Assembly (NCBI GenBank): GCA_034430195.1
Contig: DAOUFF010000049.1
Span: 10,271 to 74,270, forward strand
Direction of reading: 5' to 3'
Length of the DNA stretch: 64,000 nt
Origin: Anaerolineaceae bacterium
Lineage (GTDB): Bacteria > Chloroflexota > Anaerolineae > Anaerolineales > Anaerolineaceae
Within the stretch, counting starts at the first letter, position 1; the number at the start of each line of letters is the position of its first letter. The position numbers were made by a program, and so were the translations under genes. Positions 7,978 to 36,807 of this stretch are shown here, one piece after another. The notes under the pieces were generated by a model. The model searched no databases. It saw only the letters and a program-made list of their open reading frames with translations, and was not told the DNA's origin.

Positions 7978-8766
7978 TCAGGAAAGTTTGCGCTTGCGGT
8001 ACCAGATCCAGACTGGCTGGACGATTTTTCGCAGCCAGTACTTGGCCACGATCGGCGCGAAGGGCTTCCCCCCATCGCGGTAATGTACCCGCAGCATTTC
8101 TGGCCAACAGCGGTCATCAGCAGCAATTGATTTTGCGCCCTCATGCAGGCGGAAGGCCGCCCAGGTCTGGGGAACGTAAACCAGGTCGCCCTCCCGGGCC
8201 AGCCGGGTCCAAAGATCGTAGTCCATGGCGAAGTAGAAACTGACATCCAAAGGAGCCACCTTGCGCCACAAGTCGGCCCTGAAGAATGCGGATTGCTGTG
8301 GAATGTGCACGTAACCGCGCTGCAGGCGGCGCAGGTCGGTCTGTGCGGCCGGAAAGTCGCCAATTTTTTCGCCAGCAGCGTTGATTAGCTGGCAGCCGCC
8401 ATAAACCATGGCTGCTTCAGGGTGGGCTTGCAGCTGGCGCACGGCGGCAGTCACTGCGCCGGGCAGCAGCAGATCGTCCGAATTGATCCAGGCAAAAACC
8501 TCTCCAGTGGCACGTGCGAAGCCTTGATTAATCGCATCGGTCTGGCCTTGGTCCGGTTCAGACTGCCAAAAGCTTAGCCTGGCGGCATAGCGCCGGATGA
8601 TTTCGACGCTGCCATCCGTGGACCCGCCGTCGATGATGATGTATTCCAGGTTGGGGTAGTCTTGCCCGAGTACCGTGAGGATGGTCTCTTCTAGAAAATG
8701 CGCCTGGTTGAACGAAGGCGTCACGATGGAAACTTTGGGCAGGGGGCTGAGTGCTGGCAGGGGCAA
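7978..8766 (-). CDS. Glycosyltransferase family 2 (last gene of the glycan locus)
   Basis: VSIVTPSFNQAHFLEETILTVLGQDYPNLEYIIIDGGSTDGS ... WINSDD. Track ORF 7978..8868 overlaps the upstream gene by 101 nt. TTG 8766-8764 lies 1 nt after the upstream stop (8770-8768) and gives a normal GT2 N-terminus. Confidence 0.8.
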   Translation of the reverse strand: MPLPALSPLPKVSIVTPSFNQAHFLEETILTVLGQDYPNLEYIIIDGGSTDGSVEIIRRYAARLSFWQSEPDQGQTDAINQGFARATGEVFAWINSDDLLLPGAVTAAVRQLQAHPEAAMVYGGCQLINAAGEKIGDFPAAQTDLRRLQRGYVHIPQQSAFFRADLWRKVAPLDVSFYFAMDYDLWTRLAREGDLVYVPQTWAAFRLHEGAKSIAADDRCWPEMLRVHYRDGGKPFAPIVAKYWLRKIVQPVWIWYRKRKLS

Positions 8767-8767
8767 A

Positions 8768-9766
8768 TCAGGCCTTCTTTCGGCGGGCGCCAAGGGAGTG
8801 GCGCATCCGGCGCAGCCAGTCCAGCGGTTTACGCAGGCTGCCCAACCCCAGCGTGCTGAGGGCTGCATAGCTGACCCGGCGCCAGTCGCGCAGGGTTGGC
8901 AGCGGATGATAGCGCAGACTTAGGCGATACATCGCCAGAGAGTCTTTGGGTTTGCCGGCTTCCATCAGGTAGAAAGCATCCAGGCGGTGGGCGCCAGCCC
9001 AAATCTTTTTGCTTAAGCGGGCGCTCGCCGGGTAGAACCTGGCGTCCGAGCCGATCCAGCGTGCCAATTCATAGGCTTCCCGGCCGAAACCTTCGGCTTG
9101 GGCCACGTTTTTTGCACCGGCGTGCATCCGAGCTGCAGCCCAAACGGTGTGAGGGATGTGGCGCGGTTCAGCCAGTGCTGCCAGGCGCAGCCAAAGCTCA
9201 TGGTCCAGCAAATAGTTAAATTCCGGGTTGAGCAGCCCAACTTCTTCCAACGCGCTGCGCCGGATGAAGACAGCGGGCTGGCCGATGATCCGGAAGGTCA
9301 TTAAACCTTTGAGCCCCCATTGGCCGTAGCGCATGCGGTGAAACGTGCGACCATGTTCATCGATCGAATCCACATCGCTGTAAACAAAAGGCGCTTTGGG
9401 GAAGCGTTCCAGCGCCTGCACTGCGCTCAAAACGGCCCCCGGGCGATAAAGATCGTCTGAGTTGAGCCAGGCTACGATTTCGCCGCGAGCCTGTCTCAGG
9501 CCCTTGTTAATCCCATCTGCCTGGCCGGCATCTCGTTCAGAGACCCAGCCGGTCACTCGTTGAGAATACTTGTTCAGGATGCGCAGGCTGCCATCCGTAG
9601 AACCACCATCCATGACCCAGTATTCCAAGTTAGGGTAGCCCTGGTAAAGCACCGACAGAATGGTCTGCTCCAAAAATGCGGCCTGGTTGAAGGACGGGGT
9701 AATGATCGAAACCAAAGGAAGGTCATTCATAGCGTTTATTATACTAATCCGGGATGAAGCGTGCAT
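8768..9766 (-). CDS. Glycosyltransferase family 2 (tandem paralogue)
   Basis: LVSIITPSFNQAAFLEQTILSVLYQGYPNLEYWVMDGGSTDGS ... WLNSDD. Alternative start ATG 9730 (MNDLPLV). Confidence 0.8.
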   Translation of the reverse strand: MHASSRISIINAMNDLPLVSIITPSFNQAAFLEQTILSVLYQGYPNLEYWVMDGGSTDGSLRILNKYSQRVTGWVSERDAGQADGINKGLRQARGEIVAWLNSDDLYRPGAVLSAVQALERFPKAPFVYSDVDSIDEHGRTFHRMRYGQWGLKGLMTFRIIGQPAVFIRRSALEEVGLLNPEFNYLLDHELWLRLAALAEPRHIPHTVWAAARMHAGAKNVAQAEGFGREAYELARWIGSDARFYPASARLSKKIWAGAHRLDAFYLMEAGKPKDSLAMYRLSLRYHPLPTLRDWRRVSYAALSTLGLGSLRKPLDWLRRMRHSLGARRKKA

Positions 9767-9841
9767 TCAAGTGTTTCATCAGGCTTGGGCGCAGCTGTGG
9801 GTGGGTCGGCCGGCCAGTAACTTGGGCGAGCCGCAGCGATT

Positions 9842-10648
9842 TCATGGGAACAGGCTGTAATAGTCCACCTTAGGGAAGACTGTAAGCCGGCCGCCAATGG
9901 TGGCATCCAATACTTGCCGGCCGTCGGCTGCAAAAGCTTCCCGGGCCATGCGGTAAGCCAGCTCGGAGGTCTGCAGGTCTGGCAACTGCCAGCGAAATCC
10001 TTTGCCAAAATAGGCAGCTGAAAAGTGGTTGGGGTCATCGCCCTGCGACTCGACGGTGGTATTGGGGGTTCCCTGGGTAGTAAAGCTGTGGTCGACACCG
10101 ATCAGAACAACCGTGGTAAAGCCCATATAGTAAGCCAGTTGGAGGGCCACGTAGGTCACTGTGGCCCCTTCCCACACCCGCCTGGTCACATCCCGCGAAA
10201 AGCGTGGGCTGGTGTAACTGGTATAGAGGAAGTGAGTCGACTCATCCATCTTCAGCCATTTGTGCGCCCGCCACGAAAAAAATTTGGGCATGTCCAAGGC
10301 GTTGAATTCGGCAGCAGACTGCTCGGCTACCAGATCATTGATCGAAACCAGGCAAGACGGACGAAAGTTTAATTCTTGCTCCGCCAGAAAGATACGGTTA
10401 AAGCCGAAACTGAATTCATTGCTCAGCTTGCCCAAATCGGTCTGGCGCAGGCTTGGACCGTTCCCGACTAAAAAGCAGCGCTCGCCTTTGTGGCTATTGT
10501 GAAGGGCGGCCAGTTTGCGCCGGGATTCCCGCCGCCAGGGGTGCAGGTAAGCGCCCGGCAGTTCGGGCAGACGGCGCAGGCCGTCATAAAGCTGACGCAG
10601 CTCACGCCCGAAACGATCGGAGCTATTTTGCGGGTTTATTTCAGCCAT
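9842..10648 (-). CDS. Stand-alone DUF115/MptE-like domain protein, Maf/Cst (GT42)-like candidate nonulosonic-acid transferase
   Basis: CFLVGNGPSLRQTDLGKLSNEFSFGFNRIF and YVALQLAYYMGFTTVVLIGVDHSF ... DDPNHFS mirror the AGNGPSL ... SGIDFY ... NSHYIGH layout of Cst-type sialyltransferases and the Maf central domain. Confidence 0.6.
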   Translation of the reverse strand: MAEINPQNSSDRFGRELRQLYDGLRRLPELPGAYLHPWRRESRRKLAALHNSHKGERCFLVGNGPSLRQTDLGKLSNEFSFGFNRIFLAEQELNFRPSCLVSINDLVAEQSAAEFNALDMPKFFSWRAHKWLKMDESTHFLYTSYTSPRFSRDVTRRVWEGATVTYVALQLAYYMGFTTVVLIGVDHSFTTQGTPNTTVESQGDDPNHFSAAYFGKGFRWQLPDLQTSELAYRMAREAFAADGRQVLDATIGGRLTVFPKVDYYSLFP

Positions 10649-10654
10649 CAGCGT

Positions 10655-11422
10655 TTATTCCGTACTCAGTCGACAGGTTGCCCCGCCATCGGCAATGATT
10701 CCCTGACCGGTAATAAAGCTGGATTGGGTGGGGTCAGCCAAAAAATAAATCACGGAGGCGATTTCGGCCGGGTCGGCCACCCTGCCGTTTACGGTTTTGC
10801 GTGCCAGCGCAGCCAGCTGCTCTTCTTCGCTGACTTCGCCGGACCTGCCGCGGTGAAAACCAGCCCGCAGCATCGGGGTATCGACCGCGCCGGGCAGCAC
10901 AGCATTCACCCGGATGGAATCGGGGGCAAATTCAATTGCCATAGCCCGCGTCAGAGCCAATAGACCGCCTTTACTGGCAGCATACGCGGCGATATTGGCC
11001 GAGGTGGCTACGGCATGCACGGAAGAGACGTTGACGATCGCGCCGCCTCCCTCGGCCTGGAGCAGCGGGTAGGCCAGTTTGGCGCCCAGAAAGACCGAGC
11101 GCAGGTTGGAAGCCATCACCTGATCCCATTCCTCGGCGCTGGTTTCGAGCAGACTCTTGGTCACCTGAAAACCGGCGTTGTTGACCAAAGCATCCAATGT
11201 GTGCGTAAACTTGCTTGTCTCGGCATAAATCCCTTCCAGCGCGCTGGCTGAGGAGATGTCGGCCTGGATGTAAAGGCCGTTGCTCGGGAATTCAGGGTAA
11301 ACGCCCTTTCGGTCGACACCAATGACGGTATAACCATGTTCCGCGAAGCAGGCTACCACGGCCCGACCCACCCCGCCGGCGGCGCCGGTGATTAATACGT
11401 GTCTTGTTTGGTTGCCAGTCAT
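10655..11422 (-). CDS. SDR family oxidoreductase
   Basis: VLITGAAGGVGRA (TGxxxGxG), NNAG, and a catalytic S...YxxxK region (SSVHAVATSANIAAYAASK). Start moved to ATG 11422, 1 nt after the upstream stop. Confidence 0.8.
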   Translation of the reverse strand: MTGNQTRHVLITGAAGGVGRAVVACFAEHGYTVIGVDRKGVYPEFPSNGLYIQADISSASALEGIYAETSKFTHTLDALVNNAGFQVTKSLLETSAEEWDQVMASNLRSVFLGAKLAYPLLQAEGGGAIVNVSSVHAVATSANIAAYAASKGGLLALTRAMAIEFAPDSIRVNAVLPGAVDTPMLRAGFHRGRSGEVSEEEQLAALARKTVNGRVADPAEIASVIYFLADPTQSSFITGQGIIADGGATCRLSTE

Positions 11423-11423
11423 T

Positions 11424-12434
11424 TCATTCCCTTTCAGCAGAACCACCGGCTGAGTGAGACTGGCCTTCCAGCGCTTTTAAGCTGGCCAGGTCGCCAACCG
11501 GCAGGTCGAGCCCCAGAAGCAAGTTGCGCAAGGTGTTCCAGTGCACCCTTTCCCAAAAGAATGGGCTGGAATTGGTGTTATGCGGTGAAAGCAAGACGTT
11601 CTCCATCTGCAGGAGAGGGCTTTCGAGTGGGAGTGGTTCCACTTCGAAGACGTCTAGCGCGGCGCCACGCAGCTGACCAGCTTGCAGGGCAGCAATCAGC
11701 GCTGGTTCATCAATGACCGGGCCACGGCTGGTGTTAATTATCACGGCATCTCGCTTGCAGTACGAAAGCGTCTCACGGTTGATGAGGTGGTGAGAAGTCG
11801 GGTTCAGCGTACAGTTGAGGCTGATAAAGTCTGACCGACTCAGCAGGTTCTGCAGTGAGGTCATTTCCACGCCTTCTTCCAGTAAAAAGTCAGGTGCGAT
11901 TTCGACGATATCATTGCCCAGCAGCCGCATGCCAAACGCACGGGCACGGCGTAGAACCGCCTTGCCGACGTTCCCCACACCCACCACTCCCAGGGTGGAT
12001 TCGCTGAGCGTCTTTCCCTGGATCTTCTTCCAATTCCCTGCTTTCATGGCCTGGTCCATCCAAGGCTGCTGCCGGGAGAAATTGAGCATGGAAGCCAACA
12101 CGCTTTCAGATACCGGTACGGTAAAGGCATTGGGTGTGTTCAAAACACGCACGCCGAACTCGGCGGCAGCCTGCTGGTCGATAGAGTCAATGCCAGTGCC
12201 CCATTTGGAAATGACGCGCAGCGCTGGCGCACAGGCTGCGATCACGCGGGCGCTGTAACGGTCGTCGCCGCAAATGGTGCCGGCAAACTGCCCGGCATAG
12301 CGCAGGATTTCTTCCTCAGAGAAGCGCTCGTGCACTTCTGGCTGCAGTACAGTAAGGCCAAAGTGCTTCAGAATGGGCTTGAAGCGCTGCATATACGGTA
12401 GCATGTAAGGGGCGGTTACCAATACAGCGGTCAT
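11424..12434 (-). CDS. D-isomer-specific 2-hydroxyacid dehydrogenase family (PGDH/GyaR-like)
   Basis: GVVGVGNVGKAVLRRARAFGMRLLGND (NAD-binding GxGxxG), INTSRGPVIDEPAL, DVFEVEPLP, SPHNT. Confidence 0.75.
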   Translation of the reverse strand: MTAVLVTAPYMLPYMQRFKPILKHFGLTVLQPEVHERFSEEEILRYAGQFAGTICGDDRYSARVIAACAPALRVISKWGTGIDSIDQQAAAEFGVRVLNTPNAFTVPVSESVLASMLNFSRQQPWMDQAMKAGNWKKIQGKTLSESTLGVVGVGNVGKAVLRRARAFGMRLLGNDIVEIAPDFLLEEGVEMTSLQNLLSRSDFISLNCTLNPTSHHLINRETLSYCKRDAVIINTSRGPVIDEPALIAALQAGQLRGAALDVFEVEPLPLESPLLQMENVLLSPHNTNSSPFFWERVHWNTLRNLLLGLDLPVGDLASLKALEGQSHSAGGSAERE

Positions 12435-13123
12435 TTTTCCTCCGGGTTGGATTTTAATCGCTGTGAGAGCAAGATTTCTGCCACGCTAAAATCAATTTCT
12501 TCGTCGATATCCCAGGCTTCCCGGGCATCAATCTCGAACATCAGTGGCCGTTCACCCAGACGGTTGCGCCGGCTGGAGAGGGTCTGCCCTGTGAAAAGAT
12601 ATAAGCACGAATTCTCTTCATATACCGGCGGCAGGTCCTGCGTGCGCAGCAGCACGGCCGGGTTGTGGTTGATCGCCCGCCCCAGCTGGTCCCAAAGGCG
12701 GGTCTGCAGGCGTGTGACACCGAACAAGGAATCGTATTCAGGGTAGGCGGCGCTGAGCGTGGCGATCGCCCGTGAAATGGTTTCGGGCTTGAGCAGCGGA
12801 TTTGTGCTGTGGGTCTGCAGGTACAGATCCGCTGGCACCAGGGAGGTATCGTGCATCAGGATTTCGTTGGTGGGGATGGTGTCTGCGCGCAATTCTTCCG
12901 GCCGAACCAAACAGCGCACGGCAGGAAAATCGCAGGCCAGGCCTTCAAGAATGACCGGAGAGTCACTATCTACAACCACCTGAGAAATTTCAGGGCATGC
13001 CAGCAGGGTGGTGATAATGTGGGCGTAAAGTGGTTTACCCAGCATCAGGCGATAATTTTTCCCCGGGACGCGTTTTGAGTCGTGCCGCATGGGCACCAAG
13101 GCAACAATTTTTTCGAATTTCAT
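12431..13123 (-). CDS. Acylneuraminate cytidylyltransferase family protein (CTP_transf_3-like), copy 1
   Basis: VALVPMRHDSKRVPGKNYRLMLGKPLYAHII, a P-loop-like motif typical of CMP-NulO/CMP-Kdo synthetases. 230 aa. ATGA overlaps at both ends. Confidence 0.75.
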   Translation of the reverse strand: MKFEKIVALVPMRHDSKRVPGKNYRLMLGKPLYAHIITTLLACPEISQVVVDSDSPVILEGLACDFPAVRCLVRPEELRADTIPTNEILMHDTSLVPADLYLQTHSTNPLLKPETISRAIATLSAAYPEYDSLFGVTRLQTRLWDQLGRAINHNPAVLLRTQDLPPVYEENSCLYLFTGQTLSSRRNRLGERPLMFEIDAREAWDIDEEIDFSVAEILLSQRLKSNPEEK

Positions 13124-14742
13124 TCCTCTCCTTCCCTGAGCATAAAGTCACCACCGCGCAGAATCCCATCGCTGATCGCGCGCAGGGCGGCTGAATTATC
13201 TGGCAGAAGCTGCTGCCAGCCAAAGTCTTTCAGGCGCACATAACCGGGCCACAAGCCATCAGGCTCCAAAAAGGCAGCAAAGTTGAGTGATGAGCGGTAC
13301 AGCTGCCAGTAGAGAAAGCGGCGTGCATTTTCAGCAAAGCGCGGCGGGACCTGGATTTCGGCCGCAGAAAGGAAGCTTTCGAGCTGGCTCAGGTAGCTCT
13401 GCCGGCTGGAGGGGAAGTAAACCGCATCGGTGCTGCTGAAGCGCGATTTGCCTGCTGCAAGAACTGGCCGGCCTAAAATGGAAGCTTCCAACCCGATGGT
13501 AGAGTTGTAAATCAGCACTAGTTTGGAGAGGCGAATCAGGTCATAGCTGCTAAAAAACTCGGTCGGGGGAATGAAGCGCACATTGGGCAGGCTTTGCACC
13601 CGCCGGCTTTCAGCCCAGTGGCTGACCGTTTCTTCGCTAGCCTTCCCTTTGCGGGCTTCGTCCGGATGAGCGCGGATGACAAACAGCACTTCGGGGTGTC
13701 GGGCAGCTGCCTGCAGGATCTCATCCAGCCAGACAAACATATCTTCAAAGAGGACGTTGGCATGAGGCTGACTGGTGTCAAATATTACATTGGTAAATAC
13801 CGGTACGACCGCTGTAAACTGGCGGCTGAGGCGCACAAATTCTGGATCCAGCTGGCTCATTTCGGGCCAGAATTGAACGCCGGCCATGTGAAAGTCACCC
13901 TGAAAGCGGCGGCTAAGGTATTGATCCAGACGGGAATTCTGCTCGGCGTCCAATTTAAAATCCTGTGGCAGGGTTAGCGGGTAAGCGGTGGCATCGCCAG
14001 CGGTGAAAAATGCACTCAGTGGTCTCAGTCCGACTTCATGGCTGTAAACCGGCAGGCCGCGCTGGCGGGCAGTCCAGCGGGCTGTCGCCTCGGGGTATTG
14101 CATACCATTAAAAACCACCACAGCTTGCGGTTTCGTTTCGTCCAGCGCGGCAGAAAAACTGCGCTGCAAAGACCAGGCAGAACGCAGGTATTCGCGCAAA
14201 ATGCGCAGAGCCGACGCGTCTCCCTCAAGGTGGTGCCGGCGCAAAATCCAGCGCACCGATGGCAGCACCAGCGACCCAAGGGGTACGCCCTGATATTCCA
14301 GGCTGCTCAGTTCATCCAGGTCAAGCCCGGTTAGAGCCTGGTCAAATTCGTCAGAGGGCTGAAATTCGAACGGGATCTGAGCCTCATCGCCAAAAAGCGC
14401 GCGCGACTGAGCCATGCAGGACTGGCAAGGTGGATTCTTGCCGGCTGTGCTGCGGTCGGTGCCCAAAACACACTGTGTCATGCCTCGCTGGCAGACGAAG
14501 TGCATCACCGGTACCCCTTGCAGCGAAAGCGACCAGCTGCTCAGCCGGGCGAAACCAGCGTTCAGGCTGACCCCGCTCAGCCGGGTGGACGCGTCGAAAA
14601 ACATCACCGGTGCGCCGGCGGCTTGGGGCGAGTGCGCGTGGACCTGCCCGGCCATCGCCCGGATTGAACGGTTGACGGCGGAATGCGTCAGGCGCGTTTG
14701 AAGGTGGGTGCGGGCTTTTCCCGCAAGCTTTGCCGGGTTCAT
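13120..14742 (-). CDS. Capsule-polysaccharide-biosynthesis (KpsC/KpsS, Capsule_synth-like) family protein, paralogue A
   Basis: C-terminal half IRAHPDE ... NVRFIPPTEFFSSYDLIRLSKLVLIYNSTIGLEASILGRPVLAAGKSRF resembles the K-HP-D ... TinSTVGLEAL ... PV..lG signature of PF05159-type proteins. The N-terminal region contains CQRGMTQC ... CQSC. Confidence 0.55.
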   Translation of the reverse strand: MNPAKLAGKARTHLQTRLTHSAVNRSIRAMAGQVHAHSPQAAGAPVMFFDASTRLSGVSLNAGFARLSSWSLSLQGVPVMHFVCQRGMTQCVLGTDRSTAGKNPPCQSCMAQSRALFGDEAQIPFEFQPSDEFDQALTGLDLDELSSLEYQGVPLGSLVLPSVRWILRRHHLEGDASALRILREYLRSAWSLQRSFSAALDETKPQAVVVFNGMQYPEATARWTARQRGLPVYSHEVGLRPLSAFFTAGDATAYPLTLPQDFKLDAEQNSRLDQYLSRRFQGDFHMAGVQFWPEMSQLDPEFVRLSRQFTAVVPVFTNVIFDTSQPHANVLFEDMFVWLDEILQAAARHPEVLFVIRAHPDEARKGKASEETVSHWAESRRVQSLPNVRFIPPTEFFSSYDLIRLSKLVLIYNSTIGLEASILGRPVLAAGKSRFSSTDAVYFPSSRQSYLSQLESFLSAAEIQVPPRFAENARRFLYWQLYRSSLNFAAFLEPDGLWPGYVRLKDFGWQQLLPDNSAALRAISDGILRGGDFMLREGEE

Positions 14743-14743
14743 G

Positions 14744-15619
14744 CTACTGGCTAAAGCGCCTCAGCTTGCTCAGAGAAGATTGTTCACTGTCATAAACCTT
14801 TTTGACTCCGTCTCCCAAAGACAGCTCCGTGACGCGGATGTACTTGACCAAGTGGGCGATTCCCTGCGGTTCTACCGAAGCACTTTGGTCGCTGCCCCAC
14901 ATAGCGCGATCCAAGGTGATATGGCGCTCAACCAGACAGGCGCCCAAGGCTACAGCCACAGCTGAGGGAACCAGACCGACCTCGTGCCCTGAATAACCGA
15001 CCGGGCAGGGGTACATGCCTTTGAGCGTGTCGATCATGCGCAAGTTGAGCTCTTCCGGCGGGCAGGGATAGCTGCTGGTGGTGTGGCAGAGAATCAAATT
15101 GTCGGACCCGAGAATTTCCATCGCTTCCCGGATCTGATCCAAGGTGGACATTCCCGTGGAAACGATCAGCGGTTTGCCGGTCGCCCGGTAAGCGCGCAGC
15201 AGCTCGTGATCCGTCAGCAGCGCTGAGGGGATTTTATGGGTTGATGGGTTAAAGCGGTCAATGAATTCCAGCGAGGGGACGTCCCACGATGAGGCAAACC
15301 AATCGATGCCGACTTGGCGGCAATATCGGTCGATCTCAGCGTACTGCTCTTCGCCAAATTCCACTTTGTAGCGGTAGTCTAGATAGGTGACATAGCCCCA
15401 GGGGGTTTCGCGCATCTGATTGCGCTGATGTTCGGGCACGCATAACTCGGGCGTGCGTTTCTGGAACTTGACCGCGTCCAAACCAGCTTCCTTGGCCGCG
15501 TCGATCAGTTGTTTGGCAATTTCCAGGTCGCCGTTATGGTTGATGCCAATTTCGCCGACGATGTAAGTTGGGTGTCCGTCGCCGATCCAGCGGCTGCCGA
15601 TTTTGACTTCACGTGCCAT
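14744..15619 (-). CDS. NeuB-family PEP-condensing (non)ulosonic acid synthase, short form lacking the SAF domain
   Basis: IGDGHPTYIVGEIGINHNGDLEIAKQLIDAAKEAGLDAVKFQKR, KIPSAL, STGMST, GYSGHE. 291 aa, ending right after the TIM barrel. Confidence 0.8.
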   Translation of the reverse strand: MAREVKIGSRWIGDGHPTYIVGEIGINHNGDLEIAKQLIDAAKEAGLDAVKFQKRTPELCVPEHQRNQMRETPWGYVTYLDYRYKVEFGEEQYAEIDRYCRQVGIDWFASSWDVPSLEFIDRFNPSTHKIPSALLTDHELLRAYRATGKPLIVSTGMSTLDQIREAMEILGSDNLILCHTTSSYPCPPEELNLRMIDTLKGMYPCPVGYSGHEVGLVPSAVAVALGACLVERHITLDRAMWGSDQSASVEPQGIAHLVKYIRVTELSLGDGVKKVYDSEQSSLSKLRRFSQ

Positions 15620-17689: not shown

Positions 17690-17736
17690 CGCCGCGATCC
17701 ATTATTCTGAAGTAACTTAAAATTTTACCACCAGGG

Positions 17737-24170: not shown

Positions 24171-24173
24171 ATA

Positions 24174-25244: not shown

Positions 25245-25257
25245 CTCTCCTCCTAAA

Positions 25258-27188: not shown

Positions 27189-27190
27189 AG

Positions 27191-28087: not shown

Positions 28088-29735
28088 GATCCTCCTGCTG
28101 GGCAGAGAGTTCGTTCAAGCGGCTCAGTCCACGCTCATACCAGTCCAGCGGTTCCCCGCTCAGATAGGCAAAAGTTTGCGCGTAGCGGGCTTGGCCTTCT
28201 GGGCTCAGCACCACGCGCATCGGGCGGGTGTTAAAATCTTCTGCCAGCCAAAGCAAATGCCAGGGGAAGGGCAGCGAAAACTCAAAGAAGAACAAATAGC
28301 CGTAGAGCCAGGCTTGTTCGATTGCCTGCGGCGTCAGCCGGTAGACTGCCGGGTCAGCCATCACCTGTTGAAGCAAAGCCTGGTAACTCTCCCAATTTTC
28401 TGGTTCCAGCGTGATGCCTTTGCCGGCGTAATGGGTGCTGCCGGCTGTGATCACTGGCAAACCGCTCATTGCCATTTCGAGGCCGACTGTGGTCGTGTAT
28501 ACCAGGCCCACATCTGCCACATCAATCAGGTCGTAGGTGTTGGCAGGGTCTTCCGGCCGAATGAGGTGAATATGCGCGGGAAGCTCAGGGAAATTCTGGG
28601 CAATGACATCTACCATGGAAGTGCCGTGCGTCAAAAGTTCACCAGGATGGATGCGGATGATCAATTGGGCTTCATCATGCTCCATGAAGTGACGGATGGT
28701 TCCCAAGATCCAGTCTGCCATCGTCTCCGAGATCCGCTGGCGGCCAAGCGTCAGGCTGTCGCCCAAGACATTGGTGGCCATCAGCGCCACCGGCCGTTCG
28801 TCCAAAGAAAGTTCCTGCATGATGGCCGGCGCACCTTGAGCCGCTGATTTTTGCCATTGGCGGGCGAAGTTCCCCCACAGTCGTGCGTTTTTACGGGCCG
28901 AAAAAAGTTCGATCATGGCCTTGCGGGCAGCCTCGGGCAGTGGCTGGCTGCCAAGCGCCTGCCACATGGCGTCGGTATCGTGGGACATGATTTCGCCATT
29001 TTGCGCCAGCCAGATGCGTTCGCGTTGGTCGGCGAATTCAAAAGTAACGGTCGGAATGCCCAAGAGTTGGGCAACCTGATAGGCGATGCCCATTTCGAGG
29101 ATCGTCCCGTTAGGCGCGACGACCAGGTCCGGTTTTTCGCGCCGGAACCATTCGTAGATGGCGATGGCTGCCGCAGAGTTGCGGGCTTTGCGCAGCTGGT
29201 AAAGGGGATGCTGATGATCTGCTTTTTCAATTTGCAGCGTATATTGGGTATCGTAATCGGAAACCTGATCCACGGCCGCATTCAGCGCTGCGGGGTAATT
29301 GGCGAGAAACTTTTTGCCGGGGGTACTTTCGAGCAGCGATTCAACCGACATGACCTCTTTGGCGGGGCTCAGCACTTTTTGCGCGTACAGATCCTGTTTG
29401 CGCAGGTCAAAAGCGTTGATCTCTTTATCCCATTCCGCATAGGGAAGGTACCCAAGCGAAATTTGGTGTCCCTGCCCGGCCAGCGCCAGCGAAACCAAGG
29501 TGGCCTGTTCAATCCAATAATGCAGCGAGGCAAAAACGCAAATCTTCTTCGGCGAAGGATGGGTTTGCCCGAGTTCTTTCACCTCTTTCACTGCCTGGGG
29601 CAATACATCGCGAATGCCGTCCATCTTAAAATGGGCAGACCAGGGTTTAAACTGGCCCATTAAACTCCAATAGGCATCTGCCGTTAGCGGAAACTTGCCC
29701 AAAATCTCTTTTATCTTTTCGGTATTGTTACTCAT
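28077..29735 (-). CDS. Capsule-polysaccharide-biosynthesis (KpsC/KpsS, Capsule_synth-like) family protein, paralogue B
   Basis: IRIHPGE ... IHLIRPEDPANTYDLIDVADVGLVYTTTVGLEMAMSGLPVITAGSTHYAG is the same signature as paralogue A. It sits directly downstream of wzt. Confidence 0.55.
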   Translation of the reverse strand: MSNNTEKIKEILGKFPLTADAYWSLMGQFKPWSAHFKMDGIRDVLPQAVKEVKELGQTHPSPKKICVFASLHYWIEQATLVSLALAGQGHQISLGYLPYAEWDKEINAFDLRKQDLYAQKVLSPAKEVMSVESLLESTPGKKFLANYPAALNAAVDQVSDYDTQYTLQIEKADHQHPLYQLRKARNSAAAIAIYEWFRREKPDLVVAPNGTILEMGIAYQVAQLLGIPTVTFEFADQRERIWLAQNGEIMSHDTDAMWQALGSQPLPEAARKAMIELFSARKNARLWGNFARQWQKSAAQGAPAIMQELSLDERPVALMATNVLGDSLTLGRQRISETMADWILGTIRHFMEHDEAQLIIRIHPGELLTHGTSMVDVIAQNFPELPAHIHLIRPEDPANTYDLIDVADVGLVYTTTVGLEMAMSGLPVITAGSTHYAGKGITLEPENWESYQALLQQVMADPAVYRLTPQAIEQAWLYGYLFFFEFSLPFPWHLLWLAEDFNTRPMRVVLSPEGQARYAQTFAYLSGEPLDWYERGLSRLNELSAQQEDHAG

Positions 29736-29737
29736 GC

Positions 29738-31023
29738 TTAAATTCTTTCTTCAATCACCCATCCCAAGGCCGGTCTGACGGCGCCTGGGCGCGGTTCGGG
29801 CCACTGCGTTCCCGGGGCGCCGCTGGCATCCACAGAAAAGCTGAGGGCCTGATCGTCTTGGAAATAACGCCGGATCCGGTAAGAGCTGGCATTAATCCCC
29901 AGACTAAAGCGGCCTTCATTCAGGGTGTAACCTGGAATGGTACAGCGGCTGACGTAAACGCCTTTGGGGCGGGACCGATATTCTTCATACAACTCATGCG
30001 CGTCAGTGTCAAAACTTGTAAAAACGGATTCGCCGCGACTGGTGTTCAGGTAGTAACCTACCCGCAGTCCGGTGATATCTTCGCTCAGCTCATATTCTAT
30101 CTCAATGGTGATCGGATCCACACTGCGCAGAGAGTCAGAAACCTGGCCGTTTTTGTCCAACAGGCGGATGGCCAGCGGGCGGAAGGGGGCCGCAGAGGCC
30201 GGCACTTCGTCCGGCTCCCAGTAGCGTTCTCCCACCTTGGAGAGCCCACGGTTCAGGTAAAAATCAACCGCTTCGTCAGAAGGAGCGCGCAGCAGCACTT
30301 TGCCTTTTTCCAACACGATCGATTCTTGCGTCAGGCGCTGGATGGCGGACATGTTGTGGCTGACGAAAAGCACCGTGCGCCCCTGCTGGGCGACATCGCC
30401 CATTTTGCCCAGGCATTTTCGCTGAAAATCAGCATCGCCCACCGCCAAAACCTCGTCCACTACTAAAATCTCTGGTTCAAGGTGTGCGGCCACAGCAAAA
30501 GCCAGGCGCAAGTACATGCCGCTCGAGTAGCGCTTGACCGGTGTATCAATGAATTGCTCCACCTCCGAAAAGGCTACAATTTCATCGAAGCGCGCTTCAA
30601 TTTCCTTCTTGTGCATGCCCAGAATGGCGCCATTCAGGTAGATATTCTCGCGGCCCGTCAGTTCGGGGTGGAACCCGGTGCCAACTTCCAGCAGCGAGCC
30701 TACCCGCCCGCGCAGCTGTCCGTAGCCTTCGGTAGGGTCGGTGACACGCGACAGAATTTTGAGAAGGGTTGACTTTCCAGCGCCGTTCCGGCCAATAATG
30801 CCAAGCGCCTGCCCCTTCTTGACTTCAAAACTGATGTCTTTCAGCGCCCAGATATGGTCGCGGCTGGCGCGCGCGTTGCGCTGACCCGGCTGGAAGGCCT
30901 GCCGTAGATGGCTGGCCTGGGTGACGATCAGGTCGCGCAGGGTATCGGATCGCTCTTGAGCGGCTCCGATCCGGTAGCGTTTGCCGATGCCAGCGACAGA
31001 AATGGATAGTTCAGAGTCCAACA

Positions 31024-31024
<1 letters not shown>
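29738..31024 (-). CDS. wzt: Polysaccharide ABC exporter ATP-binding protein with C-terminal Wzt-type carbohydrate-binding domain
   Basis: Start moved to ATG 31024 (TGATG junction). GIIGRNGAGKSTLLK (Walker A), YSSGMYLRLAFA (signature), ILVVDEVL (Walker B). An extra ~170-aa beta-rich C-terminal domain follows (ITIEIEYELSEDITGLRVGYYL...). Confidence 0.8.
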
Positions 31025-33341
<2,317 letters not shown>

Positions 33342-33463
33342 ATATTTCAGTTTATGAATTATAGACGGGAATCATCAGCCGTCAAGTTGGGCGGAGAGGC
33401 GCTACGCCTTCCGGCTTCGCCGGCATTCGTGATGCCCATTCCCGGGGTAAGCTCAAGGGGTGA

Positions 33464-34369
33464 TCAGTTAAAAACCCCAAGCTCAACGTAATAAAGCTGG
33501 CCGGCTTTGGTGCCATAAAATGCGACCATGCGCTGCGCCATCTGGGGGTTATAAGCAGCTCCGCTGCAGCAGCCGTAATGGAAAATCTCTTCATAACCCA
33601 ACGGATATTCGCTGCCATCGAAGAAATACCCGAGCAGCCCGTCGCGCTGGTAGAAGTAAAATGGCCGCCCAGCGATGGTTTGGAACCCGAAGGATTCCTC
33701 GTACCCCTCGCGCTGATTCAACGATTCACCATCTTGATAAATGTCACCCACTGATTCAATTTCAATCACATTTGGGTCTTCTTTTGGTTTCTCGCTGGAA
33801 GCGACAGTTTCAAGATACCACGAGTCATCTACGGCCCAAAAGCCCCACACTGGGCTGACCGGCTGCGCTTTGCCCATGGGAATGGTCAAGAGCAGGCTGT
33901 CATTCTCAAAGATGCGGATTTCAATGTCTTGCAGAACGGTGCCGTCGGGTTGAGGCGTGGTGCCGTATTGATACTCCCAATGGATCAGTTTATCGCCAAC
34001 CTGAAGGCTGTTGCCGGTATAAACTTCCCTGGGGAAGCGCTCTTCGCGCTGCTCGGCATGAACAGCCCGGATCTCTTCCCAGTCGCCGTCCAGTGGCACA
34101 CTGACCACTTCCTCTCCGACCATGGTATTTCGTTTGAGGGCATGTTCTTCCATCGTCAGGGCGGCCGATGCAGGGCTGAGCGTGGCGGGCACTTCGCTAC
34201 TGCTCAGTTCAGGCGTCGGGCTGGCTGGCGGATACGTGGCCGAAGCTGTCGGCTGCGGCTCGCTGCTGGATGGCTGCGGCTGGCTGGTGGCTGGCTGCCC
34301 CCCGCAGGCACAAAGTACCAGAGCAAGTATCAGGAATGACCCCAATGGTTTGGAAATATTTATTAACAT
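33464..34369 (-). CDS. Lipoprotein of unknown function
   Basis: MLINISKPLGSFLILALVLCACGG (lipobox), a Pro/Ser/Thr-rich linker, then a ~200-aa aromatic-rich domain (FYFYQRDGLLGYFFDGSEY). Confidence 0.6.
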   Translation of the reverse strand: MLINISKPLGSFLILALVLCACGGQPATSQPQPSSSEPQPTASATYPPASPTPELSSSEVPATLSPASAALTMEEHALKRNTMVGEEVVSVPLDGDWEEIRAVHAEQREERFPREVYTGNSLQVGDKLIHWEYQYGTTPQPDGTVLQDIEIRIFENDSLLLTIPMGKAQPVSPVWGFWAVDDSWYLETVASSEKPKEDPNVIEIESVGDIYQDGESLNQREGYEESFGFQTIAGRPFYFYQRDGLLGYFFDGSEYPLGYEEIFHYGCCSGAAYNPQMAQRMVAFYGTKAGQLYYVELGVFN

Positions 34370-34516
34370 TTTTGCTCCTTGAGGGATTGGCGGGTCAAAT
34401 TCGGGTGAGTCCCGCCCGGGGAATGACCTGAGGGGTGCTTGACGCCAGCAGCGAGAAATGCCGGCAGCCCTCCTTATCGGTACATCATGGCAAAATTACG
34501 CTTCAGAACATGGCGA

Positions 34517-35494
34517 TCAGGGCGTGGCCACATCCTTCGCCCAGGCCCGTTCTGCCAGATACCAGTTCACCAAGCGGCTCACGCCCTCTGTGAGGTTAAC
34601 CTGCGGCTGCCAGCCCAAAACACGCTGCGCCTTGCTGACGTCGGCAACGTTGCTGAAGACGTCCGCCGGGTGACTGGGAATGTAGCGCACATCCGCTTTT
34701 TTGCCCAAAAGGTCTTCCAGCATGTGGATGAGCGCGTTGATGGTGATCACCTCATGCCCACCCAAATTGAAGATGTCGTAACCCGCCGGCTGGAGGGCAA
34801 GCAGCGTGCCGCGGGCGATATCATCCACATAAGTGAAGCCGCGGGATTGCTCGCCGTTGCCGGTGGTTACCACCGGCCGCCCTTCGGCGATCCACTGACA
34901 GAAGCGGAACATCACCATGTCGGGCCTCCCGGCCGGCCCGTAGACTGTAAAGTAGCGCAGGATGCTGACATCCAAACCGTAAAGGTGATGATAGGCATAG
35001 CAAAAGGCTTCCGCGCCTTTTTTACTGGCGGCATACGGCGCAAGTGGGTGATCGGTGCTGGCTTGTTCGTTATGGGGTGGCTGGCCTTCGTTGCCATACA
35101 GGCTTGAAGTGGAAGCCTGAATAAATTTGGGCACCGCGTGCTGGCGGGCCAACTCGAGCATGTTTAGTGCGCCGAGCGTATTGGTATTAAGGTAGCTCCA
35201 GGGGTCGCTGGTGCTGGCACGCACGCCGGCGATGGCTGCCAGGTTGATGATGCCTTCCAAAGGGGGCAGTGCGCCGTTCAGCCGGCCGATCAACGATTTG
35301 TCGGAGATATCATCCCGGATGAATGTAAACCCAGGCTGGTCCAACAACCCTTTCAGCCGATATTCCTTCATGCGGACGTCATAGACGGGGTTAAGGTTGT
35401 CGATGCCAAAAACCTGGTGGCCGTCCGCCAAAAGAAAGTGGGCGACACGCGCTCCAATGAAGCCGGCCGCGCCGGTAAGCAGGTAATTGGACAT
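34517..35494 (-). CDS. NAD-dependent epimerase, UDP-glucuronate (or UDP-HexNAcA) 4-epimerase-like
   Basis: LLTGAAGFIGARVAHFLLADGHQVFGIDNLNPVYDVRMKEYRL, SSLYG, YAASK; extended SDR. Confidence 0.65.
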   Translation of the reverse strand: MSNYLLTGAAGFIGARVAHFLLADGHQVFGIDNLNPVYDVRMKEYRLKGLLDQPGFTFIRDDISDKSLIGRLNGALPPLEGIINLAAIAGVRASTSDPWSYLNTNTLGALNMLELARQHAVPKFIQASTSSLYGNEGQPPHNEQASTDHPLAPYAASKKGAEAFCYAYHHLYGLDVSILRYFTVYGPAGRPDMVMFRFCQWIAEGRPVVTTGNGEQSRGFTYVDDIARGTLLALQPAGYDIFNLGGHEVITINALIHMLEDLLGKKADVRYIPSHPADVFSNVADVSKAQRVLGWQPQVNLTEGVSRLVNWYLAERAWAKDVATP

Positions 35495-36807
35495 CAGAGC
35501 CTGACCACCTTGATGTTGTTTCTTCCCAGGTCTTTCAGCGCATTTCGGGCATCAAAAATGAGCTGAGCTTTTTCCAAAATCATCGCATAATCAATCTTGC
35601 TGTGATTGGTGATGATGGCCACACAGTCCGCCTTCTCGACCGCGGCAGTCAAATCCTTTTCGGAAGTGAGCTGAATGGTTTCTTCATCCAACACGGGGAT
35701 AAACGGGTCGTAATAGCTGACCAGAGCGCCTTTCTCCTGCAGCAGGTGGATGATATCCAACGCAGGCGATTCGCGCAGGTCGTTAATATTGGGTTTATAA
35801 GCCACCCCAATGACCAGAACCCGGCTCCCGTTGAGCGGCTTTTTGAAGCGGTTCAGTGCGTCTTGAATCTTGCCGGTCACATAGCGCGGCATGTTTGAGT
35901 CGATTTCGGATGCAAGGTCGATGAAGCGGGCAGTATAGTTGACAGTCTTCATCTTCCAGGATAAATAGAGCGGGTCGACGGGGATGCAGTGGCCGCCCAT
36001 GCCCGGGCCAGGGGTAAACTTCATGAAGCCGAAGGGTTTGGTGGCGGCCGCATCGATGACTTCCCAAACATCAATGTTCAGCCGGTCGCACATTTGCGCC
36101 AGCTCGTTCACCATGGAGATATTAACCATGCGGAAGGTGTTTTCCAGCAGTTTGGTTAGCTCAGCCACTTCAGCAGTGCTCACCGGGATCACCGTCTCGA
36201 GCGCTTCGCGATACCAGGCAGTAATGACTTCGGTACATTGGCTGGTAATCCCGCCCACCACTTTCGGCGTGTTATAGGTGGTGAAGTCCGTCCGCCCGGG
36301 GTCGACCCGTTCAGGGGAAAAAGCCAAGAAGAAATCTTCACCGGCTTTCAGGTCGCTTGCAGCAGTCAGTTTAGGCAGGAAAAACTCGCGGGTTGTGCCT
36401 GGGTAGGTGCTCGATTCCAGGACGATCGCCATCCCGCGATGCAGGTAGGGGGCCAGGCTATCGCTTACTGCGGCAATGTAAGACATATCTGGGTCACCAG
36501 TTTTGCGCAGCGGGGTTGGTACGCAGATGGAAACCGCATCAATTTCGTGCAAAACGTCATAGTCGGTGGTGCCACGGATTTTCCCGGCTTCAACAAACTT
36601 GCGCAGGGTGGCATTGCTTACATCTGAAATGTAACTTTCGCCGCGGTTGATCATTTCCATTTTTTCGCGGTTGGGGTCAATGCCAGTGACGGTAAAGCCA
36701 GCTTGGGCAAAGGTAATTGCCAGAGGAAGGCCAACATAGCCCATTCCGATTACTGCAATATTTGCACGGCGCTTCTGAATCATTTGGATCAGTTCATCTT
36801 TGACCAT
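35494..36807 (-). CDS. Nucleotide-sugar 6-dehydrogenase (WecC/WbpA/Cap5O-like UDP-HexNAc dehydrogenase family)
   Basis: IAVIGMGYVGLPLAITFAQAGFTVTGID, GESYISD, FSPERVDPG, GGHCIP (catalytic Cys). Confidence 0.8.
   Translation of the reverse strand: MVKDELIQMIQKRRANIAVIGMGYVGLPLAITFAQAGFTVTGIDPNREKMEMINRGESYISDVSNATLRKFVEAGKIRGTTDYDVLHEIDAVSICVPTPLRKTGDPDMSYIAAVSDSLAPYLHRGMAIVLESSTYPGTTREFFLPKLTAASDLKAGEDFFLAFSPERVDPGRTDFTTYNTPKVVGGITSQCTEVITAWYREALETVIPVSTAEVAELTKLLENTFRMVNISMVNELAQMCDRLNIDVWEVIDAAATKPFGFMKFTPGPGMGGHCIPVDPLYLSWKMKTVNYTARFIDLASEIDSNMPRYVTGKIQDALNRFKKPLNGSRVLVIGVAYKPNINDLRESPALDIIHLLQEKGALVSYYDPFIPVLDEETIQLTSEKDLTAAVEKADCVAIITNHSKIDYAMILEKAQLIFDARNALKDLGRNNIKVVRL

Follow-up and report, generated by a model that had tools for sequence, protein, structure and literature searches.

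A conserved operon of uncultured Anaerolineaceae predicted to build a Wzm/Wzt-exported glycan bearing nonulosonic acids

The window analysed here is a 64-kb stretch of DNA (64,000 nucleotides; contig DAOUFF010000049.1 of assembly GCA_034430195.1) from an uncultured, filamentous member of the Anaerolineaceae (Chloroflexota) of anaerobic digesters. It contains a glycan-biosynthesis locus at positions 7978-36807, where a six-frame listing gives exactly 28 consecutive open reading frames (ORFs), all on the minus strand. A first-pass annotation made from the letters alone had reported the same 28 ORFs and had read them as genes for a cell-envelope glycopolymer carrying nonulosonic acids. All of its domain assignments were reproduced gene by gene with the Pfam and NCBIfam hidden Markov models. 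The label 'fcl' for g24 holds as far as the Epimerase family goes, but its GDP-fucose synthase part is weak (301 bits, cut-off 500), and the locus has no gmd to go with it. The genes are listed below from g28 to g01.

35494..36807, minus strand: g28, nucleoside diphosphate (NDP)-sugar dehydrogenase resembling UDP-ManNAc/GlcNAc dehydrogenases (Pfam UDPG_MGDP_dh N-terminal, central and C-terminal domains); peripheral
34517..35494, minus strand: g27, NAD-dependent sugar epimerase/dehydratase, TviC/GalE-like (Pfam and NCBIfam); peripheral
33464..34369, minus strand: g26, secreted or lipoprotein-like, function not assigned, N-terminal hydrophobic signal ending in LCAC; peripheral
32799..33341, minus strand: g25, MarR/EPS (exopolysaccharide)-type winged helix-turn-helix regulator (HTH_24 and MarR), first gene of the conserved operon
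31856..32815, minus strand: g24, Fcl-like NDP-4-keto-6-deoxy-sugar epimerase/reductase (Epimerase family)
31024..31869, minus strand: g23, Wzm ABC-2 permease (PF01061, 72 bits; at least 4 transmembrane-like segments)
29738..31024, minus strand: g22, Wzt ATPase with a C-terminal Wzt_C carbohydrate-binding module (ABC_tran, 77 bits, and PF14524)
28077..29735, minus strand: g21, 552-aa GT-B protein, KpsC-like, HP motif RIHPGE (PF05159, 26.9 bits)
27191..28087, minus strand: g20, S-adenosylmethionine (SAM)-dependent methyltransferase, candidate capping or O-methylating enzyme (Pfam)
26175..27188, minus strand: g19, PseB, inverting UDP-GlcNAc 4,6-dehydratase (TIGR03589, 490 bits, cut-off 407.75)
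25258..26178, minus strand: g18, RmlD-like 4-ketoreductase (RmlD_sub_bind, 211 bits)
24174..25244, minus strand: g17, NeuB-family synthase with a SAF domain, 356 aa (PF03102, 232 bits, and SAF)
23055..24170, minus strand: g16, family 4 glycosyltransferase (GT4; Pfam)
22420..23058, minus strand: g15, small secreted or lipoprotein-like protein with a signal peptide, function not assigned
20713..22410, minus strand: g14, cytidylyltransferase (SpsF/KdsB-like) in fusion with a SAM methyltransferase (PF02348, 113 bits, and Methyltransf_23)
19754..20707, minus strand: g13, glycosyltransferase of GT-A fold without a Pfam family (AlphaFold2 model, mean predicted local distance difference test [pLDDT] 86)
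18735..19754, minus strand: g12, family 2 glycosyltransferase (GT2; Pfam), last gene of module A, where short-form loci stop
17737..18738, minus strand: g11, Gfo/Idh/MocA oxidoreductase (Pfam), first gene of module B
16862..17689, minus strand: g10, short-chain dehydrogenase/reductase (SDR; Pfam; best NCBIfam model PRK09186)
15609..16868, minus strand: g09, CMP-nonulosonate synthetase fused to a haloacid dehalogenase (HAD) domain of the KdsC/Kdn-9-P-phosphatase type (PF02348 and Hydrolase_3)
14744..15619, minus strand: g08, NeuB-family synthase without a SAF domain, 291 aa (PF03102, 257 bits)
13120..14742, minus strand: g07, 540-aa GT-B protein, KpsC-like, invariant HP motif RAHPDE (PF05159 and BFO_1060 domain)
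12431..13123, minus strand: g06, third CTP_transf_3 cytidylyltransferase, 230 aa (PF02348, 107 bits)
11424..12434, minus strand: g05, D-2-hydroxyacid dehydrogenase resembling phosphoglycerate dehydrogenase and glyoxylate reductase (Pfam and NCBIfam)
10655..11422, minus strand: g04, SDR oxidoreductase (Pfam and NCBIfam)
9842..10648, minus strand: g03, MptE-like protein (Maf/Cst type), 268 aa, GNGPSL motif (PF01973, 51.8 bits, cut-off 34.6)
8768..9730, minus strand: g02, GT2 glycosyltransferase (Pfam)
7978..8766, minus strand: g01, GT2 glycosyltransferase (Pfam), with which the operon ends; the start is probably a TTG at 8766, and the longest ORF reaches 8868

Three ORFs (g13, g15 and g26) match no family. 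Both g15 and g26 bear signal peptides and gave zero Pfam or NCBIfam matches, and Foldseek matches of the g13 model are the glycosyltransferases K4CP, TarP and WrtF. The Wzm permease is the sole polytopic membrane protein among the products. The Wzt_C module of g22 scores 40.9 bits (cut-off 30.4), and TagH/Wzt models match this protein below their cut-offs. For g28, the generic NDP-sugar dehydrogenase subfamily model TIGR03026 is passed at 440 bits, and UDP-ManNAc dehydrogenase models stay below their cut-offs. The best NCBIfam model of g10, PRK09186, is that of 'flagellin modification protein A' (PtmA). Among the sugar-pathway enzymes, PseB alone reaches an NCBIfam equivalog cut-off; the NeuB, PseI, PseF, KdsB, KdsC, Kdn-9-P phosphatase, RmlD (TIGR01214 on g18, 200 bits, cut-off 224) and Fcl models all remain below theirs. 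With Pfam and NCBIfam, none of the 28 products matched a family of aminotransferases, acetyltransferases, NeuC/PseG or sugar kinases, and no DegT, GNAT/hexapeptide or Glyco_tran_28_C/Epimerase_2 match exceeded its threshold in any of them. As the defining enzymes are absent, the locus lies outside the canonical neu, pse and leg pathways, in agreement with the first-pass annotation.

Start and stop codons overlap as ATGA at 26175/78, 23055/58, 18735/38, 13120/23 and 12431/34, and TGATG junctions occur at 35494 and 31024, as read directly from the bases. These are seven of the eight junctions quoted earlier; the other one, listed as a sixth ATGA, reads TTGA at 19754/57. There, translation could begin at a TTG or, more likely, at an ATG at 19754 within a TGATG junction, behind a GGAGG Shine-Dalgarno site. 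The widest gap between 9842 and 32815 is indeed 47 nt, and is found at 17689/17737.

The same-strand run continues through five more housekeeping genes, coding for uracil-DNA glycosylase, RimI, TsaB, TsaE and monogalactosyldiacylglycerol (MGDG) synthase, to 40594, and strand alone is thus no boundary marker for the locus. On the left, the locus is flanked by convergent genes of the plus strand, coding for a major facilitator superfamily (MFS) transporter, DinB, DegV, a second MFS transporter and a class I/II aminotransferase. The G+C content is 0.53-0.59 throughout, the same in the locus as in its flanks, which rules out a recent horizontal-transfer island. Two regulatory features were identified.

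33358..33385, minus strand: sigma-70-like promoter TTGACG-16-TATAAT, 11 of 12 matches, 17 nt upstream of the MarR gene (g25) start
7813..7841, no strand: 13-bp G+C-rich hairpin in the convergent gap past g01, probable terminator

The overall counts in the promoter and terminator scans are at chance level, with no excess of promoter-like sites in the region, and only these two sites stand out, the first by the quality of its match and its position. We propose that it marks the start of the conserved operon.

Relatives of the locus were found in Anaerolineaceae metagenome-assembled genomes (MAGs). When species-representative genomes were scanned with g14, nearly all matches were in Anaerolineaceae/Chloroflexota MAGs from digesters and anaerobic membrane bioreactors, with at most 64% identity to g14, and the exact g28 protein sequence occurs on metagenome contigs only. 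In tblastn searches with all 28 products, a check that the first-pass annotation had called for, the order g24 to g04 was kept without rearrangement in 27 species-level MAG loci; loci beyond these are cut by contig ends. Across the 27 loci, modules A and B (see below) have the same gene order at 35-91% amino-acid identity, with values of up to 91% for PseB (g19), 78-86% for g24 and 35-60% for g15. Thus, this arrangement is not due to chance, and the operon appears to be conserved family-wide in the Anaerolineaceae.

Several Anaerolineales MAGs (L046, L051, L053, L055 and L060) carry g24-g12 alone. We therefore distinguish a self-contained module A (g24-g12) from an added module B (g11-g01). 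In assembly GCA_034430875.1, g03-g01, including the GT2 gene g02, are conserved (L087), and so are g28-g25 (L089). In some species, L087/L089 among them, two separate genes code for the cytidylyltransferase half and the methyltransferase half of g14. The locus of GCA_040769025.1 (L090) starts at the MarR gene; its upstream genes are unrelated and g26-g28, hence also the g28 dehydrogenase present in L089, are absent. The MarR protein scores 69.5 bits on TIGR04176 (cut-off 88). Because the core begins at this gene in both L089 and L090, with a promoter before it and a hairpin after g01, we take the evolutionarily conserved unit to extend from g25 (start 33341) to g01 (7978), with g26-g28 as peripheral genes.

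In L047, an Anaerolineales MAG (8455-15221), module B is swapped for another second set that codes for a TagF-like Glyphos_transf protein, an NDP-sugar dehydrogenase, a ManC-like nucleotidyltransferase, an HAD hydrolase, a NeuB homologue and a CTP_transf_3 protein. The second module is thus exchangeable and tied to mannose metabolism. A radical SAM/SPASM gene lies at 8054-9115 of L087, between the CTP_transf_3-HAD gene and the SAF-less NeuB gene, and another one at 16949-18493 of an Alphaproteobacteria MAG (L077), beside a PseB-NeuB-RmlD-like set. These genes hint at further sugar modification in some lineages. The g21 homologue of L090 (P0307) occurs with identical sequence in 297 blocks of a public assembly collection, and the species carrying it is therefore very widely sampled in public metagenomes.

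Both synthases belong to the NeuB family, as had been claimed, with 256.9 bits for g08 and 232.2 bits for g17 on PF03102 (gathering cut-off 22.1). They do not reach the equivalog models TIGR03569 and TIGR03586 (cut-offs 400 and 340), on which g08 has 246 and 197 bits and g17 has 269 and 235 bits. Aligned to Neisseria meningitidis NeuB (1xuu), g17 keeps K53, Q55, H215, E234, H236 and R314, and has Asp in place of E25 and E134. In the structure of that enzyme, R314 lies near the N-acetyl group of the substrate. The SAF domain of g17 scores 39 bits, and the Arg of its 'VLRP' motif aligns to R314, the only conserved catalytic residue of that domain (PMC8208679). In a pairwise alignment to g17, g08 keeps the His and Glu residues and E25, and position 134 is Leu. 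Like its best PDB match, 6ncs (290 aa), g08 has no SAF domain.

The three cytidylyltransferases are likewise members of their predicted family, PF02348 (cut-off 22.6), with 107 bits for g06, 83 bits for g09 and 113 bits for g14. On the PseF model TIGR03584 (cut-off 206), g09 and g06 remain below with 152 and 81 bits, respectively. The N-terminal domain of g14 matches KdsB models only, with at most 74 bits against cut-offs of at least 155, and its best PDB match is 6oew; both 6oew and 6ncs are Leptospira proteins. The best PDB match of g06 is the CMP-Kdn (Kdn, 3-deoxy-D-glycero-D-galacto-non-2-ulosonic acid) synthetase PpNeuA, at 53 bits, and for the cytidylyltransferase domain of g09 the top scores are those for PseF and NeuA. 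Residues 256-412 of g09, a type C0 HAD domain of the KdsC/Kdn-9-P phosphatase class, match KdsC (108 bits) and Kdn-9-P phosphatase (85 bits), both below the cut-offs. PDB matches of this domain include 3mmz (133 bits, the best, ahead of KdsC) and the BT1713-type 3e81 (67 bits). The g08 and g09 genes are adjacent, with an 11-nt overlap.

Three products could transfer the activated sugars, set against three cytidylyltransferases. g07 and g21 are paralogs, with 26% identity over 225 C-terminal residues, and share the motifs TNVxxD, HP (RAHPDE in g07, RIHPGE in g21) and S/T-x-G-L-E, which are invariant across 28 g07 homologues. They score 21.7 and 26.9 bits, respectively, on PF05159 (cut-off 20), and g21 matches KpsC in the PDB at E=0.02. 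The AlphaFold2 model of g07 has a GT-B fold (pLDDT 88). In Foldseek searches, target-normalized TM-scores (TMt) are 0.52-0.57 for KpsC, with root-mean-square deviations (rmsd) of 6-9 Å, 0.43 for WbbB, and ~0.33 (11-14 Å) for UDP-GlcNAc 2-epimerases. In a family profile, the HP motif of g07 (H359-P360) and the S/T-G-x-E that follows align with their KpsC counterparts. The invariant D322, 37 residues before HP, is a candidate nucleophile that may correspond to the catalytic Asp of KpsC (D160) or WbbB (D232). Over the HP-motif segment, g07 matches the NCBIfam BFO_1060 domain at 45 bits (family cut-off 200). BFO_1060 is the orthologue of Tanf_01245, a genetically proven Tannerella forsythia transferase of pseudaminic (Pse) or legionaminic (Leg) acid derivatives with a sialyltransferase-type HP motif (PMC5420450).

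GT99 and GT107 enzymes are characterized by a QxxxKD motif, which is absent from g07 and g21, and we have thus not filed these proteins in either family. Based on their motifs and the g07 model, they probably represent a related but separate family of CMP-ulosonic-acid transferases, with g21 as a candidate for transferring the sugar, or for terminating the chain, in module A. The protein collection contains 3824 relatives of g21 and thousands of g07, all annotated as hypothetical. Four Cys residues in the N-terminal domain of g07 (C84, C91, C106 and C109, including a CxxC) are invariant in the 28 homologues and probably form a zinc site; we know of no zinc site in KpsC-type enzymes. The third candidate nonulosonic-acid transferase is g03, whose GNGPSL segment gives a marginal N-terminal match to Cst-II (E 0.3-0.7). 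With 268 aa, it has the size of Cst-II, unlike Maf proteins, and the 64-kb window contains no flagellar genes that would provide the context of Maf flagellin glycosylation.

We hold with moderate confidence that this operon assembles a cell-surface acidic glycan, exported by Wzm/Wzt and bearing two, possibly three, CMP-activated 3-deoxy-ulosonic (nonulosonic) acids that are made by shortened routes. At the bioinformatic level, this supports the glycopolymer proposed in the first-pass annotation, the polymer and its sugars being predictions. Several observations weigh against it, or against parts of it. The two NeuB proteins, the three cytidylyltransferases and the HAD domain are below every NCBIfam equivalog cut-off. 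Assignment of the synthases by similarity to solved structures failed, g08 and g17 being approximately equidistant from the characterized NeuB, PseI and SpsE. Because of these scores and distances, the identity of the sugars cannot be read from the sequence, and g08 has its Leu where N. meningitidis NeuB has E134. No enzyme of the locus could be assigned, using Pfam, NCBIfam and the g13 model, to the release of 6-deoxy-N-acetylhexosamine (6-deoxy-HexNAc) from UDP. An RmlD-like gene beside pseB is itself no proof of an amine-free route, since an Omnitrophota locus (L069) has a PseB/RmlD-like pair beside a DegT aminotransferase and a Fibrobacteres locus (L061) has an RmlD-like gene with a class-III aminotransferase, the latter without a PseB match in the stretch examined. 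The Foldseek E-values of g07 are as good for UDP-GlcNAc 2-epimerases as for KpsC and WbbB, and the lack of QxxxKD in g07 and g21 also counts here. Finally, no priming transferase, ligase or LytR-CpsA-Psr (LCP) gene was found with Pfam and NCBIfam inside the operon.

For module A, we infer a fusaminic-type route. The g19 and g18 genes are joined by an ATGA overlap and g17 lies 13 nt further on. PseB (g19) would convert UDP-GlcNAc into a UDP-4-keto-6-deoxy intermediate, which the RmlD-like g18 would reduce at C4, rather than transaminating it as PseC does, to yield a UDP-6-deoxy-L-HexNAc such as 2-acetamido-2,6-dideoxy-L-altrose (L-6dAltNAc). UDP would be lost through an enzyme outside the set assigned in the locus. 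g17 (NeuB356) would then condense the freed 6-deoxy-L-HexNAc with phosphoenolpyruvate (PEP) to form a 5-acetamido-3,5,9-trideoxy-nonulosonic acid with a 7-hydroxyl group, of the fusaminic-acid type. The SpsF-like g14 would activate this acid to its CMP-sugar, and g21 would transfer it, possibly as a methylated non-reducing-end cap required by Wzt_C before export, onto a backbone built by the GT4 enzyme g16, the GT-A enzyme g13 and the GT2 enzyme g12. L-6dAltNAc and a 5-N-acyl-3,5,9-trideoxy-nonulosonic (fusaminic) acid with a 7-hydroxyl group, which match the predicted intermediate and type of product, occur together in the O-antigen of Fusobacterium nucleatum ATCC 25586 (PMC13014188). This is a chemical precedent; the F. 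nucleatum sugar bears an acetimidoyl group and sits in lipopolysaccharide. An aminotransferase and an acetyltransferase are unneeded here, because neither Kdn-type nor fusaminic-type sugars require them. The 'unusual pathway' of the first-pass annotation is therefore non-canonical as stated, but less mysterious than it seemed.

Candidates for the enzymes missing from this scheme were sought in and around the locus. g13 is out as a PseG/NeuC-type hydrolase, given the GT-A fold of its model. The class I/II aminotransferase gene (6476-7762) is rejected as a pathway member, since it lies convergently on the other strand, is of the AspC type, and is not beside the locus in L087, and the GNAT at 37505-38200 belongs to the tsaE-tsaB-rimI housekeeping set, which excludes it as a PseH. 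A search for a minimal amine-free pathway in other phyla had no outcome: L069 codes for DegT and class-III aminotransferases and L061 for a class-III aminotransferase, and the scanned ORFs of the alphaproteobacterial L077 mostly have no Pfam match. The class-III aminotransferase ORF of L069 (6109-8424) also matches LAGLIDADG_3, a hint that an intein or a homing endonuclease is inserted there.

The sugars might instead be canonical ones (N-acetylneuraminic acid, Pse, Leg or Kdn), with the aminotransferase, acetyltransferase, hydrolase and 2-epimerase encoded elsewhere in the genome, of which the window covers 64 kb, and with the PseB, RmlD-like and Fcl-like proteins only feeding a 6-deoxy-L-HexNAc backbone. 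The aminotransferases next to the L069 and L061 genes fit this idea, as does the fact that the glycan of F. nucleatum has L-6dAltNAc among its own residues, and any nucleotide-sugar route requires a UDP-sugar hydrolase, yet the locus has none. Nevertheless, 27 species keep the operon strictly, with its translational coupling, and none of them has acquired the canonical genes over the stretch covered (g24 to about g04). Furthermore, g19, g18 and g17 are contiguous, and both synthases stay under the equivalog scores of NeuB and PseI. We regard canonical sugars as unlikely.

The glycan would be built on a lipid carrier in the cytoplasm, after priming by a TagO/WecA-type enzyme encoded outside the locus, and exported through the Wzm/Wzt ABC transporter. 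Characterized Wzt_C modules bind a terminal methyl, methyl-phosphate or 3-deoxy-D-manno-octulosonic acid (Kdo) cap, and capped chains alone are exported (PMC11231755). The genes that come right after wzt code for the candidate terminators g21 (KpsC-like) and g20 (methyltransferase). Because of this position, a (methylated) ulosonic-acid cap is a natural reading for module A. A plus-strand pair at 43715-47356, upstream of the locus, codes for a VanW/PG_binding_4/G5 protein and a 471-aa LytR_cpsA_psr/LytR_C protein. The latter, an LCP enzyme (45941-47356) encoded 9 kb upstream and outside the operon, may be the ligase that attaches the glycan to peptidoglycan. The genes for LCP, LysM, VanW, DegV and MGDG-synthase proteins near the locus, together with the Anaerolineaceae host, fit the monoderm-type genome suggested in the first-pass annotation.

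Alternatively, the glycan could be destined for proteins (surface layer [S-layer], sheath or surface O-glycosylation), be lipid-anchored, or be released as exopolysaccharide. S-layer glycans with methylated caps that depend on an ABC transporter exist in Geobacillus, the Maf/Cst-like family of g03 is known from protein glycosylation, the Tannerella relatives of g07 work in protein O-glycosylation, and the operon itself has no LCP or ligase gene. However, the locus encodes no polytopic protein resembling an oligosaccharyltransferase or O-antigen ligase, Wzm being the sole multi-transmembrane product. There is also no flagellar or S-layer gene within the window, and an LCP-LytR_C gene is only 9 kb away. 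A glycan that is not linked to peptidoglycan is thus quite improbable in our view.

The gap left by the UDP-sugar hydrolase would be closed if g07, g21 or both were NeuC/LegG-like hydrolysing 2-epimerases and the transfer were left to g03 or another glycosyltransferase. Foldseek E-values for 2-epimerases, NeuC included, are as low as those for KpsC, and g07 scores 18.9 bits on Pfam Epimerase_2. The TM-scores and rmsd values nevertheless favour KpsC over the epimerases, and at the sequence level the matches are to KpsC and to transferases of the BFO_1060 family, their HP motifs being aligned. In addition, short-form loci would be left without a plausible CMP-sugar transferase, and module B, which has a phosphatase, should not need such an epimerase. 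An epimerase role for these proteins is therefore disfavoured, and we give it little chance.

With g07 and g21 taken as transferases, a bolder claim can be made, which we regard as possible rather than probable. Module A could be the first genetic blueprint of an amine-free, PseB-initiated fusaminic-type route, in which enzymes of a class new to nonulosonic-acid pathways would release UDP, and the HP-motif GT-B proteins g07 and g21 could found a new glycosyltransferase family that installs these sugars, either as units of the polymer or as caps for export, in a Chloroflexi 'teichulosonic acid'.

Module B would follow a Kdn-type route. The SAF-less g08 (NeuB291) would condense PEP with a hexose 6-phosphate. 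Mannose-6-P, which would give Kdn-9-P, is the most economical guess because every other option would require a further enzyme to make its precursor. The phosphate would then be stripped by the HAD domain of g09, and the N-terminal domain of this protein would make the CMP-sugar, to be transferred by g07; the fusion of an HAD domain to the synthetase is what points to a phosphorylated intermediate. The weakest part of this model concerns the remaining genes: the four oxidoreductases, namely the Gfo-type g11, the SDRs g10 and g04 and the 2-hydroxyacid dehydrogenase g05, might act with g06 and g03 to make and install a redox-modified or epimerized derivative. The two GT2 enzymes g02 and g01 would extend the glycan. 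The teichulosonic acid of Streptomyces is Kdn-based. A teichulosonic acid is found in Streptomyces walls (PMC13011467), and SAF-less NeuB proteins occur in this genus (PMC8208679). In Leptospira, a phosphatase fused to a nonulosonic-acid enzyme was read as a sign of a phospho-sugar route (PMC3438082). The ManC-like gene that adjoins the HAD-NeuB-CTP_transf_3 set of L047 is also consistent with this chemistry.

Two adjacent phosphoglucomutase/phosphomannomutase genes with a 4-nt overlap are located at 55504-59558 on the minus strand. One of the proteins has 849 aa, with an unassigned N-terminal extension of ~200 aa. These mutases, which are unlinked to the operon, could supply hexose phosphates.

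That one or both NeuB proteins make an 8-carbon Kdo-like or other 3-deoxy-ulosonic acid instead of a 9-carbon one is highly improbable: the partners have a Kdo flavour (the HAD domain scores best on KdsC with its 108 bits, g14 matches KdsB only, and g07 and g21 resemble Kdo transferases), but to our knowledge every characterized NeuB-family enzyme makes a 9-carbon acid, the locus has no KdsA or KdsD, and the g09 cytidylyltransferase domain is closest to PseF and NeuA.

The proposed two-module pathway can be compared with several known systems, and is perhaps best likened to an ABC-dependent, terminator-controlled glycan pathway crossed with a teichulosonic-acid-type polymer. The teichulosonic acids of Actinobacteria, such as the Kdn polymer of Streptomyces (S. 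coelicolor SCO4873-SCO4882), are phosphate-free acidic wall glycopolymers made from a nonulosonic acid in a monoderm, and Streptomyces has SAF-less NeuB homologues. A further link is 3mmz, which among PDB entries matches the HAD domain of g09 best and comes from Streptomyces avermitilis. The present locus belongs to another phylum. It codes for two synthases and three cytidylyltransferases, it pairs PseB with an RmlD-like reductase, and its Wzt bears a carbohydrate-binding module.

Wzm and a Wzt with Wzt_C are shared with the ABC-dependent O-polysaccharide systems (Escherichia coli O9a/O8 WbdD, Klebsiella O12 WbbB with its beta-Kdo cap, and Klebsiella O4 GT137). In these known ABC systems, chains are marked for export by an ulosonic acid or a methyl group at their end, and here a KpsC/WbbB-like GT-B and a methyltransferase come right after wzt. 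In contrast, the present host is a monoderm without a lipid A-core acceptor, its candidate transferases have no QxxxKD, and the donor would be a 9-carbon CMP-sugar. As in the canonical pseudaminic pathway (PseB, C, H, G, I and F), the locus has a true PseB, encoded next to a synthase of the NeuB family and a CTP_transf_3 protein, but PseC, PseH and PseG are absent, the RmlD-like reductase takes the place of the aminotransferase, and the synthase and cytidylyltransferase are below the PseI and PseF cut-offs.

The T. forsythia proteins Tanf_01245 and TFUB4_00887, of the BFO_1060 family, resemble g07 in the domain with the HP motif, on which g07 scores 45 bits (family cut-off 200). Their N-terminal domains have no relation to that of g07, g07 has a four-Cys cluster, and the Tannerella system serves protein O-glycosylation in a diderm. 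Proteins of this family are required for adding the terminal nonulosonic acid in Tannerella (PMC5420450). Regarding the domain order of g09, CTP_transf_3 followed by a KdsC-like domain, a comparison can also be made with other lineages. The same order is found in vertebrate CMAS. Leptospira has a cluster with several NeuA and NeuB paralogs in one locus and a phosphatase-domain fusion, and this cluster also includes neuD. Unlike the present operon, the Leptospira cluster has the phosphatase fused to the synthase, multiple aminotransferases, and a complete di-N-acetylated pathway including neuC (PMC3438082).

In our literature search, we found no paper describing this gene order or nonulosonic acids in Anaerolineae/Chloroflexi, and none combining nonulosonic acids with Wzt-type export; an already characterized locus, the other outcome envisaged in the first-pass annotation, was thus not encountered. 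What our analyses add to that annotation are the host, the family-wide synteny, the limits of the operon, its two modules, the nature of g13, g07 and g21, and a chemical precedent that accounts for the 'missing' enzymes.

Filamentous Anaerolineaceae rank with the most abundant bacteria of granular sludge and anaerobic digesters, and their cell envelope is hardly known. The operon is a concrete candidate for an Anaerolineaceae wall or sheath polymer and a likely genetic source of the nonulosonic acids detected in the extracellular polymeric substances of sludge. If the bolder claim made above for module A, g07 and g21 holds, the family would be a major overlooked source of the unidentified nonulosonic acids in anaerobic sludge. 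The locus also offers a plausible gene set for the still uncharacterized fusaminic-acid-type sugar, and g07 and g21 indicate a large unannotated family of probable CMP-ulosonic-acid transferases.

Lastly, two observations concern other parts of the window. Four small ORFs of 105-152 aa without Pfam matches are found at its left end (195-2273). At 41482-42939 on the plus strand, 5 kb from the locus, a gene codes for an unusual 485-aa fusion of a GIY-YIG nuclease with a GalK-like GHMP kinase (GalKase_gal_bdg, GHMP_kinases_N and C), with domains taken from the gene table of identical metagenome contigs.

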